Shown here in pieces: positions 9,001 to 24,000 of a DNA stretch of 64,000 nt. Position numbers: made by a program. This DNA is from Candidatus Cloacimonadota bacterium (GTDB taxonomy: Bacteria; Cloacimonadota; Cloacimonadia; JGIOTU-2): positions 32,001 through 96,000 of the forward strand of contig JBNGBT010000002.1 in the NCBI GenBank assembly GCA_049903315.1, written 5' to 3'. The stretch's first letter is position 1. Every line of letters starts with the position of its first letter.

Positions 9001-12000
9001 GGACCTACCAATATTGGTGGGCGCATCACTGATCTTGCGGTAAATCCTAATGATCTGAATACTTACTACGTGGGAGCTGCATCCGGCGGAGTGTATAAAA
9101 CCATAAATGGCGGTGCGAGCTGGGAAAATATTTTTACCGATGTACCTGTTATTTCTGTGGGTGCTATTGCACTTGATCCAAACAATGTAACTACTCTTTA
9201 TGTCGGGACAGGTGAAGCGAATGCATCGAGTTACAGTTTTCTTGGGAACGGCATATATAAGTCCACAAATGGCGGTCTGTCATGGGACAATATTGGTTTA
9301 GAACAATCCGGCTATATTGGCAGGATCGTGGTAGATTATATGAATTCTCAGAGAGTGTTCGTGGCAGCGTGCGGAAATCTCTTCTCACCAAATTCCGAAA
9401 GAGGAGTATATCGCAGTGATGATGGTGGGGAGACCTGGCAGCGAAAACTCTTCATTAATGATTCCACTGCAGCAGTCGATATTGTTCAACATCCAACCAA
9501 TCCGAATATTCTCTATGCCGCAATGTGGGAGCGTATGCGCGGTTTGACGTACAGACGATCCTTTGGTCCGAGTTCCGGTATCTGGAAATCAGAAAATGGC
9601 GGAGATACCTGGACTGAGCTTACAAATGGTTTGCCAACGGGCAGTGATGTAGGACGAATCGGACTCGCAATTGCAAAATCTAATCCTGATAGGCTTTATG
9701 CATTTTATGATAGAACAAACCAGGTTGATGTCTACAAAACAAGCAATGGCGGAGCAAGCTGGACTGCAACCAATGATGGAGCACTGCAGGGAATAAACAG
9801 CAATTTCGGCTGGTATTTCGGCCAGATCCGGGTCGATCCAAATGACCAGGATCGAGTATATGTTATGGGAGTGTACCTGTACCGTACAACAAATGGAGGT
9901 TCAAGCTGGAGTGAAATCGCATATAGTGTGCATGTTGACCATCATGCAATGTATATTGATGAAGATACAGGATTTATTATCGAAGGAAATGACGGCGGTC
10001 TTTATACCAGCTCAAATTCGGGCTCTTCTTGGTCAAAAATAAATAACCTACCCATGACGCAATTCTATGCAATCGAGATCGATCAAACCTATCCTTACAG
10101 AATCTACGGCGGTACTCAGGATAATAATACGATCCGGACTATGACAGGTGCACTTAATGATTGGGAAGCAATTTTGGGCGGAGATGGATTCTACTGCTTG
10201 GTAGATTACACAAATCCTAATAGAATCTTTGCAGAATACCAATGGGGCAACCTATACCGGTCAACCAACGGAGGTTCATATTTCAGCTATATTGCAAATG
10301 CAATGAGTGGCGACCGAACAAACTGGTCTTCTCCCTATGTGATGCATCCAACAAATCCTGATATTCTCTACTTTGGCACGTATAGAGTATGGAAAACAAC
10401 GAATGGAGGATCAAACTGGTCAGCAGTAAGCGGAGATCTTACTCAGGGTGATGATATAAGTGGTTATCATACAATCTCAACAATGGCTATCTCCACACTT
10501 GACCCTGGTCTTATTCTTACAGGCAGTGATGACGGACGAGTTCATATTTCCGATAATAGTGGGACTTCATGGACAAATATTTCTGTAGGTCTGCCTGATC
10601 GCTGGATTACGAGAGTGGCATTTGATCCTCATAATGCAACTACCATCTATGCAACGATTTCCGGTTTTCGCTGGGATGAAGAAGCCCCCCATGTTTTTAA
10701 ATCTACTAATCTTGGATTGGACTGGGTAAATATTAGCGGAAATCTTCCTGAAATGCCCGTGAACTGCATTGCCCTTGATCCGAATATCCAGAATAAAATA
10801 TTTGTTGGAACGGACTCGGGTGTATTTTTCTCTGAAGATGGAGGCTTTAGCTGGCACAGTCTTTCCCAGGGAATCCCCAATGTTCCTGTTACTGATATGA
10901 AAATTTATAATCCTGATCGATTTATGGTCATCGGCACATACGGCTGTTCTGCATATAAGATCGATCTTGACGACATTATTGTGAGTACTGATCCTGAACC
11001 GGACGAGCACGTGCTTGTACAACTCTATCAGAACTATCCCAATCCTCTTTCATTATCTTCACATGCATCAACGCAGATCGATTTCTCTCTGAGTACTCCT
11101 GCTGATATAGAAATTACAATCTATAATATAAAAGGTCAGAAAGTAAAAAACATAATGAACAATCAATTGGCAGCTGGGGATCATAATGCACTATGGAATG
11201 GTACTGATGAATTCGGTAAATCCGTTTCCACAGGAGTGTATCTTTACAAGCTGTCTGTTAATGGAAATGTAAAGCAAATCAAACGATGTACAATAATACA
11301 ATAAAACAAAAAGGATATCTCATGAAAAAATTACTTATACTAATCGCGGCTTTAATTATGCTTCCCGCAATTCTTTCTGCAACACAAATGAACGTGGTCG
11401 GGGAAGTATTTACATCCACGTCTTGAGGATACTGTCCTTCAGCCCGGGCCGGGTTGAGAGATCTTCAAGCTAATTTTGATAACTTTATACCGCTTTTCTG
11501 GCAAAGCACCAGCGGCTACGTGGGGATGCCAAGTCCCAATTACAGCACCCGTGGGGGTATGTACGGTGTCAGCGGTATTCCACATGCTCGATTTGGAGGA
11601 TACATCTCTGAAGTTGGTGGAATTGCTGGCGGTAATATGTACAATTATTATCTTCCTCATTACAATACACTTAATGCCCTGGATAGTCCATGTGCTATTG
11701 ACATTACGATGGATGTTACCTCTAAATCTACCATTGATGTTCAAGCTGATGTTGAATTGACTGGAAATATTACTACTACTAACAACAAGATCATTCTTCT
11801 GCTTACATACAAATACACTGATGATTATACTTGTGCGGTCGTTGCATATCATGATGAGAACTTTAATCTTACCACAGTAGGTCAGACCGGAAGCTTTTCC
11901 TATTCATTCGCGTATGACCCAGACTGGGTATTACCCGATTTGAAGGCAGTTGCTATTGTTCAGCCCTTTTCAAGCAATTACAAAATACATCAGGCAGCCA

Positions 12001-21000: not shown

Positions 21001-24000
21001 CCTGAACAAGAATTGAAAGAAATAGTATTAGCTTCCATTCCCGATGATATCGAGATAAGAGAAGTCAATCAAAAAATATTATTAGTAGCTCTCTCAAGAA
21101 TTGGACTGATTAAAGGAAAAATTACCAAAATACTCACGAAGCATCACACGGAGAATCCGCTTATACAAAGGGGAAAAACCTTCGAAGAATTATCCAGTCT
21201 ACTGAATCTGGGCACAGAATATGACGTTTCATTCTTGAGTATGCTGTTGGAAGAAATGAGTAATAATAAAGTTCTGCGTAAGATTGAAGGAACGTATGCT
21301 CTTAAAGAAAAGGATAATTCGCCTTCCGATCAAGAAATAAAAAAGATAAAGAAAATCGGACAATTCATATTGAGTTTTGGTATGAAAGTTCCTTTAATGA
21401 ACGAGATAAAGGAATTTGGCCAGACACAGGGAATGTCTCAGAAAGAACTGCATGATATTATCAATTTTCTTATTGAAAATAAAGAAATCGTTACGATCGA
21501 AGGTTCGTTTATTCACGCAGCGATCATTGAAAAAGCGAAGAATGTGTTAATCGCACATTTCGAAAAGAATGAGACGCTCATGCTTGCTGATTTTCGTGAT
21601 AACTTGCAGGCAAATAGGAAGATATGCCTGTTGTTACTCTCTTATTTCGATGATAAGGGATGGACTGTTCGCAAAGGTGATTATCGGATATTGTCCGAAA
21701 AAGGTAAGGAGTTATTACACTGACGGAAATTGTTATGCTGACGATCAAAAGGATGTAGTATGCAAAGAGATATAGAAGTGCGGTTTGCAAATCAGAAAGA
21801 TGTTAATTCACTTCATGAACTGCTTATCCAATTATCTGAGAGTGTTCTCATTAAACATGGACTTGATAATAGTGTGATAAAGAAGAATCTTAAGGATGCA
21901 CTCGAAAATGATGAGAATTCGATCATGGTAGCAGTTAAAAATAAGCGGATAGTGGGCATACTCTATGCTACCACTCATCAATCATTACTACATACACATC
22001 GTTCTGCCCTAATCGAGGAACTCATCATACATCAAGATTTTCGAGGAACAGGAATTGGAGGTGCGCTCTTGCGTAAGTATTTTGAATATGCCGAGGATAA
22101 AGGGTATTGCGAGATTGAAGTAAGTACTGAAATCACAAACAAAAAAGCGATTCATTATTATAAAAAGTGCGGTTTCGAAGAAGTTGGTATTCATATGGAG
22201 AAGGAAATCGGTGAGCAATGAGTGCGAACCACATATTTTCCATACTGAAAGATAAGATTGATACAAAACATTGTACTTCTCCTCAGAAGATTGCAATTGA
22301 TGGGATCGATGCTTCAGGTAAAACAATATTTGCTGATCGCTTTGCAGACTACCTTAAGAAACAATCAATCCGGCAAGTAATTCGTGCATCGATCGACGGA
22401 TTTCATAATCCAAGGGAAGTTCGTTTACAGAAGGGAGAATACTCCCCAGAAGGATATTATTATGATTCATTTAATTACAAAGCTCTCAAACAATTCCTAC
22501 TCGAACCTATGATGCCAGACGGTAATAGAAGAATTCACACCCATATTTTCGACTTTAAATCCAATAGTAAAATTGTGAAAGATCGGTTTCTTGCTGAAGA
22601 TGATGCAATACTTATTTTTGATGGCATCTTTCTTATGCGTAGCGAACTCGTTAACTATTGGGATTTCAAGATATTTTTAAAAATTTCATTTAAAACAGCG
22701 CTTAGGAGAGCATTGATAAGAGATAAAGAATACTTCGATGACGAGAATAGTTTAAGGGAGAAATATGAAAAAAGATATTTCCCGGGGCAAGAGTTATATG
22801 TAACGGGTTCACATCCTGAACAAATAACCGATGTTGTGATAGATAATGAAGATTTTGATAGTCCAACAATTATAAAACCTTTGAATATTTAATTCAAGAA
22901 TTAACATGAAAGCAGAACAGCAGATTCGTAAGATCATCCATATTGATATGGATGCTTTCTTTGCAGCGGTAGAAGTGCGTGATAATCCGCAATACAGAGG
23001 TAAACCACTTATCGTTGGCGGCGATCCGAACAGCAGGGGAGTTGTCGCCACATGCTCTTACGAAGCGCGGAAATATGGCATACATTCCGCAATGGCAAGT
23101 GCTGTTGCCTACAGACTCTGTCCCCATGCAATATTTGTGCACGGCAGGTATGAAGTGTATAGCCAGATATCAAAACAGATTAGAAGCATTTTTGATGAAT
23201 ATTCTCATCTTGTCGAACCTGTCTCCATTGATGAAGCATATCTCGATGTGACATATAATAAAAAGGGAATGAAATCAGCCACACTCATTGCAAAAGATAT
23301 TAAACAAAGAATATTCAAGAAAACCGGACTAACTGCCTCAGCGGGAGTGTCGTACAACATGTTCCTCGCAAAAATAGCATCGGATATGGATAAACCGGAT
23401 GGGCTTGTTGTTATTCCTCCTGATAAGGCAAAGCAAGTTCTGGAGGAGCTTCCTATAGGTAAATTCTATGGGATCGGCAAAGTGACAGAAAAGAAAATGC
23501 AGATGCTTGGCATCCTCACCGGTAAGGACTTAAAGGAGCAAACGCTCGAAGAACTCATTCGTCATTTTGGGAAAGCTGGAAGATATTATTACTACATAGT
23601 AAGGGGGATTGATAAAAGGGAGGTCACAACTGAGCGTGATATAAAGTCGATTGGCAACGAGAATACCTTTGCAACAGATATTGATGACATGCAAGAAATG
23701 AAGGAATATCTCTCAAAATGTGCGGCAAAAATAGAAGAAAGATTAAAAAAACATAATGTCGCCGGACGTACGATCACACTTAAGATTAAGTATCCCGATT
23801 TTTATCAGGCGACAAGAAGCAAAACTTTACAAAATTCAACACAAGAAAAAGAAGTTATCATTACTACAGTTTACTCGCTTTTAGAGGAAACTCTTGTCAA
23901 AAAGTGTAGTGTAAGGTTGCTTGGTATCAGCATTTCTAATCTTGAAAACGACAAGATAAATCTCCCTCATCAGCTCACATTAAAATTATAAATAAAAAAT

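Follow-up and report, generated by a model that had tools for sequence, protein, structure and literature searches.

Predicted thioredoxin-fold selenoproteins with type IX secretion sorting domains in a Cloacimonadota bacterium

Two genes within a 64,000-nucleotide stretch of DNA from a Candidatus Cloacimonadota bacterium (hereafter the window) each contain one in-frame TGA, and their products, termed A and B, are probably SelB-decoded selenocysteine (Sec) oxidoreductases of thioredoxin fold that are exported by a type IX secretion system (T9SS) to the cell surface or beyond it; the folds are predicted, and we infer Sec insertion, export, activity and the path of electrons. Selenols are very reactive, and theirs is regarded as an intracellular chemistry. 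If A and B do reach the surface, then abundant anaerobes, as yet uncultured, devote scarce selenium to extracellular redox chemistry, and selenoenzymes belong among the cargo of the T9SS. The features discussed below are listed by their positions in the window.

855..2510, + strand: DsbD-like protein, in an upstream envelope redox cluster that spans 855..6601
2530..3609, + strand: Omp28-like lipoprotein with CxxC (redox cluster)
3609..4421, + strand: TlpA fused to TonB_C (redox cluster)
4418..5854, + strand: DUF6029 protein (redox cluster)
5870..6601, + strand: small T9SS-tailed protein (redox cluster)
11322..13499, + strand: gene A, predicted selenoprotein of 725 aa; signal peptide, HBP35/Omp28-like head (thioredoxin plus Ig-like), PKD, beta-helix, T9SS type A sorting domain
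11424..11426, + strand: in-frame TGA of gene A, U35 of U-G-Y-C
11438..11458, + strand: SECIS-like hairpin of gene A, with a G-rich loop about 18-21 nt 3' of the TGA
13242..13487, + strand: C-terminal T9SS sorting domain in residues 641-722 of gene A; TIGR04183 37.4 bits (cut-off 23), PF18962 33.4 (cut-off 27)
13525..13550, + strand: terminator-like hairpin after gene A, with a near copy at 15872-15897 after the middle gene
13768..15846, + strand: middle gene, T9SS-tailed protein of 692 aa that lacks an in-frame TGA and has six further paralogues in the genome
16072..17994, + strand: gene B, predicted selenoprotein of 640 aa; signal peptide, ResA/TlpA-like head, PKD, stalk, T9SS sorting domain
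16252..16254, + strand: in-frame TGA of gene B, U61 of U-G-G-C
16268..16278, + strand: SECIS-like hairpin core of gene B, a 4-bp stem whose GGC loop lies 17 nt 3' of the TGA
17749..17973, + strand: C-terminal T9SS sorting domain in residues 560-634 of gene B; TIGR04183 31.0 bits, PF18962 31.2
18023..18117, + strand: tRNA-Sec, anticodon TCA; Rfam 57 bits (cut-off 47)
18146..19525, + strand: selA; TIGR00474 550 bits, over the NCBIfam cut-off
19789..21723, + strand: selB; TIGR00475 319 bits, over the NCBIfam cut-off
33216..35456, + strand: Cys form of SelD with a fused NifS-like desulfurase (Aminotran_5); 397 bits with TIGR00476, above its cut-off
35756..36793, + strand: gene C, T9SS-tailed predicted selenoprotein with CxxU (W-C-F-G-U); TGA at 36032-36034

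A preliminary description of this locus had given the same coordinates for genes A and B, each with a single TGA in a UxxC motif, and this was borne out: U35 is the only U of A (in the context TSTS-U-GYCP), and U61 the only U of B (GGTG-U-GGC). It had also called the two genes neighbours, which is incorrect, as the middle gene sits between them; as far as tested, that gene stands outside the Sec story. The placement of UxxC right behind the signal peptide needs a small correction, with U lying about 14 residues past the likely cleavage site in A but about 41 in B. The tRNA-Sec, selA and selB genes do lie downstream as claimed, all over their cut-offs, and selB extends beyond the end originally assigned to the finding. 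Terminator-like hairpins were seen 3' of both gene A and the middle gene; it is their position that favours this reading, since the region contains as many sites of this kind as shuffled sequence does on average. A promoter scan gave a chance-level result (39 versus 37.5).

In the mechanism proposed here, the TGA of both genes would be read as Sec by SelB and tRNA-Sec, guided by a hairpin within the coding region, and the products would cross the inner membrane by means of their signal peptides and fold in the periplasm. The C-terminal domain would then hand them to a T9SS-type SprA-PorV-PorU outer-membrane route leading to the cell surface or the outside, where the PKD/beta-helix stalk would carry a thioredoxin-fold head in which Sec serves as the N-terminal nucleophile and Cys as the resolving residue. 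The HBP35-like A and the ResA/TlpA-like B would most likely act on disulfides, either in other surface cargo or in substrates outside the cell, by reducing or isomerising them, and head A would probably be re-reduced through the DsbD-TlpA-Omp28-DUF6029 cluster.

Export of A and B by a T9SS is plausible from sequence. A signal peptide was recognized at the N terminus of both by inspection and hydropathy, and the C-terminal sorting domain that had been ascribed to both passed the Pfam and NCBIfam cut-offs. The case for export, first made from these tails, gained from the presence in this genome of SprA (575 bits), PorU (535 bits) and two PorV-family proteins, all over cut-off; an ExbB-ExbD-TonB cluster lies near sprA. 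The GldK/L/M/N module, however, went undetected, and export stands as a prediction. A PorW-like protein fell below its cut-off, and no PorZ exceeded it among the proteins scanned. Searches for GldL, GldM and GldN came up empty and one for GldK gave a weak partial match, but the hoped-for control genome returned no match either; three complete genomes of the class likewise yielded no GldM or GldN, again without a working positive control.

It is unlikely, if far from negligible, that A and B are true selenoproteins kept in the periplasm or on the outer membrane's inward side as DsbD-fed reductases, with an Ig/FlgD-like, non-secretory tail that goes unused for secretion because the lineage has no T9SS motor. 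Beyond the failure to detect the motor module, such a location would make re-reduction simple, the FlgD_ig scores of the tails (34 and 39 bits) are about equal to or above those of the T9SS models, and the part of PMC11285876 that was available describes a T9SS in Cloacimonadota as merely possible; according to that paper, T9SS tails can be specific to a class. Against it, the translocon proteins are class-wide (SprA is present in 141 of 151 class genomes), a T9SS tail occurs on 177 frames of this genome, and the six genomes of one family (f4) jointly miss SprA, PorV and all four of the Sec heads considered here; moreover, the motor searches were those without a working positive control. Also against it, some heads carry, in place of the T9SS tail, a dockerin, which is a module of extracellular complexes.

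The nature of the exported heads was addressed with predicted models (pLDDT 94 for head A and 98 for head B). The model of head A matched HBP35 (PDB 5y1a; Z 21.7, rmsd 2.9, 207 residues), and the predicted succession of thioredoxin domain, Ig-like domain and T9SS tail gives gene A an HBP35-like layout. Head B, for which the Pfam scores fall under gathering (AhpC-TSA 18.5 of 26 bits; Redoxin 15.4 of 26.6), matched ResA-type proteins (E 2e-8, TM 0.78), and its modelled extended thioredoxin fold, (U/C)xxC motif and cis-Pro are those of a ResA/TlpA-like protein. The stalks of the two genes are 47% identical, with PKD over the Pfam cut-off in both and Beta_helix in A. Of the 'thioredoxin/peroxiredoxin-like' heads first proposed, the thioredoxin fold is therefore supported by the predicted structures, while the peroxiredoxin reading was rejected: the PxxxTxxU/C motif is missing from both head alignments (PxxxTxxU being the peroxiredoxin motif in the portion of PMC13188914 consulted), and the best matches of head B are ResA and TlpA.

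That the exported Sec is instead a ligand or scavenger (of heme, metal, polysulfide or peroxide), and does not act as nucleophile in a disulfide reductase that is recycled, appears quite improbable. HBP35 does bind hemin (PMC2907840, in part), heads C and E carry predicted Sec without any thioredoxin match, and an electron route across the outer membrane is hypothetical; yet in the alignments of both heads A and B the resolving Cys of UxxC never varies, nor does the proline in the cis-Pro position, and the surroundings of head A are conserved, with a TlpA match beside it in 32 of 76 loci and DUF6029 in 17 of 76. The redox cluster is a candidate reducing path for the disulfide reductase that we prefer as the function of head A; against it, the cluster lies about 5 kb from gene A in this genome, and the link concerns head A and not head B.

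The presence of Sec in genes A and B is well supported by the Sec machinery, the conservation of TGA and Cys codons, and the conserved hairpins, the insertion itself being predicted, and the case is stronger than in the preliminary description. This genome has tRNA-Sec, selA, selB and selD. Among 57 genomes with a TGA match to any of four heads, selA was found in 51 and selB in 4 more, and a Sec system went undetected in two (G032, where the match is weak, and G048, which is 59% complete). At the aligned site of head A, 30 loci comprised 20 with TGA, 9 with TGC or TGT, and 1 not covering the site. That of head B is TGA in 30/30 loci, with no Cys form among them, and distant solved relatives have CxxC there; a class-wide search found a single TGA in 35 of 37 matches to head B, the other two having none. 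The 76 named-genome loci divide into 64 TGA, 9 TGC, 1 atypical and 2 not located, all of these counts coming from related genomes and hence not being independent of each other. Across families and phyla, the TGA is kept and alternates with Cys codons only. In one family (f6), selA was found in none of 65 genomes; head-A homologues occur in all 65, and all 20 fetched loci have Cys codons. The 9 Cys forms of A are scattered among Sec forms in a neighbour-joining tree without support values, which hints at repeated change from Sec to Cys in head A. Location beside tRNA-Sec and selA was dropped as general evidence, being confined to this family (10 of 12 genomes inside it versus 0 of 17 outside, where fragmented assemblies limit the count).

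The hairpins of both genes have the geometry of the bacterial SECIS model in section 5 of PMC13188914, which was seen in part (a loop 16-37 nt after UGA, G in its first two places, and a stem of at least 4 pairs). Hairpin A is more stable than synonymous-codon shuffles (z -2.55), and 83% of its cells pair, versus 45% in f6 and 27-48% when it is slid. It is also retained, at 94% paired, in the 9 Cys forms of head A, and it is therefore no marker of Sec alone. The earlier caveat that the hairpin after the TGA of gene B is weak holds for its stability, as its core reaches only -3.7 kcal/mol and single-sequence folding showed none beyond that of shuffles (z -0.35 and -0.52), but its loop and codons are nonetheless conserved. 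The loop is GGC in 29 of 29 distinct rows, the codons are near-invariant (GCG 30/30, GCG 30/30, CCG 28/30), in 2 rows both partners of one base pair differ, and loop and spacing are identical to those of the genome's Sec-containing SelD.

A genome-wide scan for frames running from Met through a U near C into a long frame gave 245 candidates, among which A and B took the top two places when ordered by how far the frame stays open beyond the TGA, so that neither is a chance occurrence. Although public collections contain both genes as cut pieces only (N-terminal proteins of 34 and 60 aa), it is very improbable that the TGA is a real stop (in pseudogenes, in split genes or through sequencing error) or another residue under a changed code, and those pseudogene and changed-code readings were rejected: the codon is swapped only for Cys codons, f6 has Cys only, ordinary genes stop at TGA here (selA at 19525, selB at 21723), the tail would have no signal peptide if translation ended there, and contigs from four runs show zero letter or gap differences, although these are perhaps the source of this DNA and therefore not independent. 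Because only cut pieces are stored, the catalytic heads are invisible in public collections, and reading through the TGA corrects the annotation.

Besides A and B, the genome contains three further T9SS-tailed Sec genes, one of which is gene C. Its aligned site is TGA in 25 and TGC in 5 of 30 loci, its head has no match in Pfam or NCBIfam, and the codon bias of its family's hairpin region is not above that of the rest (0.46 versus 0.47). A broader and more doubtful reading, which we offer tentatively, is that of a surface selenoproteome in Cloacimonadota and other FCB lineages, in which at least four unrelated Sec heads (HBP35-like UxxC, TlpA-like UxxC, a CxxU domain, and beta-helix CxxxU/UxxxU) would ride on shared stalks, be exported by a T9SS without the known GldLM motor, and be recharged by a relay of DsbD, TlpA, Omp28 and DUF6029 that crosses both membranes. 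If true, these bacteria would run an extracellular redox system built on selenium. Genes A and B themselves offer leads on two questions, the recharging of a surface thioredoxin such as HBP35 and the powering of a T9SS in which no GldLM motor is detectable.

The claim that no T9SS cargo with Sec had been described agrees with the literature searched, incompletely covered, in which no T9SS-borne selenoprotein was found; its novelty was nevertheless overstated, because head A is kin to GOS_C/NF045500, some members of which have a T9SS tail, and because HBP35 is an already studied Cys cargo of the T9SS. The words T9SS, Omp28 and 'secret' are absent from the main text of the review PMC13188914. 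Extracytoplasmic bacterial selenoproteins named in the literature seen in part include the SaoX/SaoB binding proteins, the ExtKL cytochrome, the GSU2204 barrel, the FCYXU TonB-dependent receptor and Trx7/PDZ; as is predicted for A and B, these place Sec in proteins that exit the cytoplasm, and none is listed as T9SS cargo. UxxC selenoproteins of redoxin/TlpA-like type are also known (PF00578 peroxiredoxin-like thiol:disulfide oxidoreductase, PF08534 and cd02966, from Table 1 of PMC13188914, partly available) and share fold class and motif with head B, which differs in its 490-residue stalk and sorting tail, an architecture that this table does not name. The T9SS of Bacteroidota shares SprA/Sov, the PorV family, PorU and type A tails with this genome, in which PorK/L/M/N, named as core T9SS genes in the accessible part of PMC5445135, went undetected by searches that lacked a working positive control.

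For gene A, the nearest selenoprotein is GOS_C, first reported in PMC2398784 and included in Table 1 of PMC13188914, with no statement on its export in the parts of either paper that were available. Both GOS_C (NF045500, 'Omp28-related selenoprotein') and gene A have UxxC in an Omp28-like thioredoxin head, and gene A matches model positions 35-268 of NF045500 (E 5e-23, 82.1 bits) below the cut-off of 200. Among 23 scanned members over that cut-off, a T9SS tail is present in 3 and was not detected at E 1e-5 in the other 20, which by reading end in thrombospondin-3-like and dockerin-like repeats. HBP35 of Porphyromonas gingivalis is attached to the surface through its tail, has thioredoxin activity and binds hemin (PMC2907840, seen in part). 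It shares with gene A, as modelled, a two-part fold, a T9SS tail and the site E-V-F-T-x-x-x-C-G-Y-C-P; gene A departs from HBP35 in having Sec for the first Cys, a PKD and beta-helix stalk that separates head from tail, and an identity of 14-15%.

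The TGA-split genes with T9SS tails (type A C-terminal sorting domains of the type IX secretion system) are a real observation, and in genes A and B reading TGA as selenocysteine (Sec) restores one continuous product each, of 725 residues (sole U at position 35) and 640 residues (sole U at position 61) respectively. By inspection and hydropathy both begin with a basic-hydrophobic, signal-like peptide, and each closes with a type A sorting domain scoring above the Pfam and NCBIfam cut-offs. The genes considered here are as follows (bare coordinates lie within the window; contig numbers are working names in the source genome):

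855-6601, envelope redox cluster: DsbD-like protein, Omp28-like lipoprotein, TlpA-TonB_C protein, DUF6029 protein and a small tailed protein
11322-13499, gene A, UxxC head, tailed
16072-17994, gene B, UxxC head, tailed
33216-35456, NifS-SelD fusion (cysteine desulfurase plus SelD, the latter in Cys form)
35756-36793, gene C, directly after the NifS-SelD fusion: tailed, CxxU head, predicted selenoprotein
contig 22:307393-309396, paralogue of gene C, tailed, TGA behind a signal-like start
contig 69:9698-11845 (L113:2699-4846 in the fetched locus), gene E: beta-helix protein, T9SS-tailed, C-E-Y-G-U

The regions between head and tail in A and B are 47% identical over 497 residues, and one type of stalk therefore carries two different heads. 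While the two genes had been described as neighbours, and both do lie near tRNA-Sec, selA and selB (which follow gene B), a tailed gene of 692 codons lacking a TGA stands between them. Gene B adjoins selA in 10 of 12 genomes of the source family but in none of 17 outside it. The 3' ends of gene A and of the 692-codon gene, with their terminator-like hairpins (13440-13560 and 15780-15900), are nearly identical, which suggests a recent duplication or exchange of a tail cassette. Elsewhere in the window, at 24065-27154, lies a tandem pair of genes, each encoding a 501-aa fusion of an anti-sigma-factor-like ATPase domain to a GNAT acetyltransferase. The NifS-SelD fusion is possibly a selenide-delivery fusion, and in the coding frame of a second SelD (contig 55, near 243640) a TGA occupies the usual U-x-x-K site, an internal sign that the source genome decodes Sec.

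The TGA of each gene is kept across relatives, the nearest named of which are Cloacimonadota. Head B has matches in 33 genomes of the class, with one TGA in 35 of 37 matches and TGA at the aligned site in all 30 fetched loci. Head A has matches in 130 of 151 class genomes, with one TGA in 66 of the 150 matches listed (of 324 in total); the aligned codon in 30 fetched loci is TGA in 20, TGC or TGT in nine and not covered in one. Among 76 head-A loci from named genomes, which include records labelled KSB1, Marinimicrobia and Eisenbacteria, there are 64 with TGA, nine with TGC, one atypical and two in which the site was not located. Two records, labelled Winogradskyella (L175) and Armatimonadota (L185), carry head-A loci resembling those of Marinimicrobia and Cloacimonadota and are possibly mis-binned, and one locus (L182) has the variant E-I-C-F-G-U-G-G-D-Y, a CxxU form replacing UxxC.

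The gene selA was detected in 69 of the 151 class genomes. Among 57 genomes with a TGA match to any of the heads A, B, C or E, selA is present in 51 and selB above cut-off in four more; the remaining two are G032, a weak match, and G048, which is 59% complete and was left out of the selB search. Family f6 has head-A homologues in 65 of 65 genomes, with Cys codons in all 20 fetched, and no selA match in those 65. Because related genomes are not independent, these counts are given without a statistic. The TGA of A and B very probably encodes Sec.

The SECIS-like hairpin 3' of the gene A TGA exceeds synonymous-codon shuffles in stability (z -2.55). Across TGA forms of head A the mean z is -1.71 (p 0.05 or less in 9 of 20), and across the f6 Cys forms it is 0.07 (0 of 20); 83% of its cells are paired in 19 distinct TGA rows, compared with 27-48% when the structure is slid and 45% in f6. 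Nine Cys forms, all from selA-positive genomes, retain the hairpin (94% paired; L011-L013, L016, L020, L021, L025, L028, L029), so that the hairpin by itself is no proof of Sec; these forms may be relics of recent Sec loss. The gene B hairpin is weak, as the preliminary description held (z -0.35 and -0.52 in two runs against shuffles), and its core of -3.7 kcal/mol falls slightly short of the -4 kcal/mol bar that, in a similar test, is reached by just 17 of the 309 long frames ending in TGA. Three of its codons are nearly fixed (GCG 30/30, GCG 30/30, CCG 28/30), the modal codon frequency elsewhere averaging 0.54 with a maximum of 0.90. All 29 distinct rows have GGC as the loop, in two rows one pair is changed on both sides, and the Sec-containing SelD, like gene B, has a GGC loop 17 nt downstream of the UGA.

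AlphaFold2 models of the heads, with U entered as C, are of high confidence (pLDDT 94.3 for A and 97.6 for B). The best structural match of head A is HBP35 (Foldseek E 3.5e-11; Z 21.7, rmsd 2.9, 207 aligned), with 2axo, a hypothetical protein, and an Omp28 domain next; for head B the matches are oxidoreductases of the ResA/TlpA type (E 2e-8, TM 0.78). Every aligned row (44 sequences for A, 27 for B) retains the resolving Cys as well as proline in the cis-Pro position. Of the suggested thioredoxin- or peroxiredoxin-like character the former is supported by these predicted folds, but the peroxiredoxin motif is absent from both heads in the same alignments. Judged by fold and motif, A and B would be thiol-disulfide oxidoreductases with Sec as nucleophile.

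The content of the envelope redox cluster, together with a TlpA homologue beside head A in 32 of 76 loci and DUF6029 in 17 of 76 (flanks up to 4 kb, many shorter), suggests that electrons pass from DsbD via TlpA in the direction of the outer membrane; DUF6029 might, at a guess, be a barrel passing electrons or substrates. Genes of this cluster are also conserved next to head-A genes in other genomes.

The source genome encodes SprA (575 bits), PorU (535 bits), PorV-family proteins (260 and 193 bits, plus a third Pfam match) and, below cut-off, a PorW-like protein. SprA occurs in 141 of 151 class genomes; six small, nearly complete genomes of family f4 (G001, G004, G007, G010, G013, G016) matched none of the four heads, nor SprA, PorV or selA. 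GldK gave a partial match below cut-off, and GldL, GldM and GldN gave none in the source genome, in searches that had no working positive control; GldM and GldN likewise gave none in three complete class genomes, in a search whose control also gave no signal. Only the outer-membrane half of the system is thus shown, and T9SS-type export of A and B is predicted as quite probable. About 7 kb from sprA (L145:2861-12371, source contig 66), a TonB-dependent receptor, ExbB, two ExbD, TonB and a PorV-family gene are clustered; they are candidates to energise the T9SS in place of GldLM, which was not detected.

A profile built from seven tails of the window matches 177 frames in the genome. In five of these, by reading of the matches, a signal-like start is followed by a TGA: genes A, B and C, the paralogue of C, and gene E. 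The codon at the site is TGA in 25 and TGC in five of 30 C-type loci, and TGA in 28, TGC in one and not covered in one of 30 E loci; in three of the latter, TGA also replaces the Cys codon four positions upstream (UxxxU). Pfam and NCBIfam models match neither of these two heads over the Sec site. In fetched TGA loci whose frame ends inside the locus, the tail is present in 7 of 8 (A), 16 of 17 (B), 16 of 16 (C) and 25 of 27 (E), and some tail-less exceptions end in dockerin. Dockerin or dockerin-like ends replace the tail on some Sec heads (among L010, L056, L132, L158 and L195-L218), and are found in most Marinimicrobia-type members of GOS_C (NCBIfam NF045500, 'Omp28-related selenoprotein'). 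The most interesting part is that five T9SS-tailed, predicted Sec genes, with four head types, occur in one genome of a class without a detectable T9SS motor. The whole mechanism, comprising Sec read-through, T9SS-type export and surface redox activity, appears fairly likely.

GOS_C was first described without functional evidence beyond a thioredoxin-like fold (PMC2398784), and is catalogued in a 2026 review (PMC13188914); head A scores 82 bits against NF045500, below its cut-off. The literature searched, which subscription papers mostly lay outside, describes no T9SS-borne selenoprotein: 'T9SS', 'Omp28' and 'secret' are absent from the accessible text of that review and of the BSepDB article (main text, PMC13326102), as are 'T9SS' and 'Omp28' from that of the Haft and Gwadz preprint. 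The claimed novelty is overstated, as T9SS-tailed selenoproteins were already implicit in the catalogued family: of 32 of the 76 named loci, picked as distant and non-Cloacimonadota, 23 pass NF045500 and three of those 23 have a T9SS tail above cut-off. The dockerin-ended Sec heads recall the scaffold proposed for Ca. Stygibacter (PMC8542988). A and B unite heads and an export tail that are each known, a pairing that the literature searched does not show, and head A has its studied cysteine version in HBP35 (PMC2907840).
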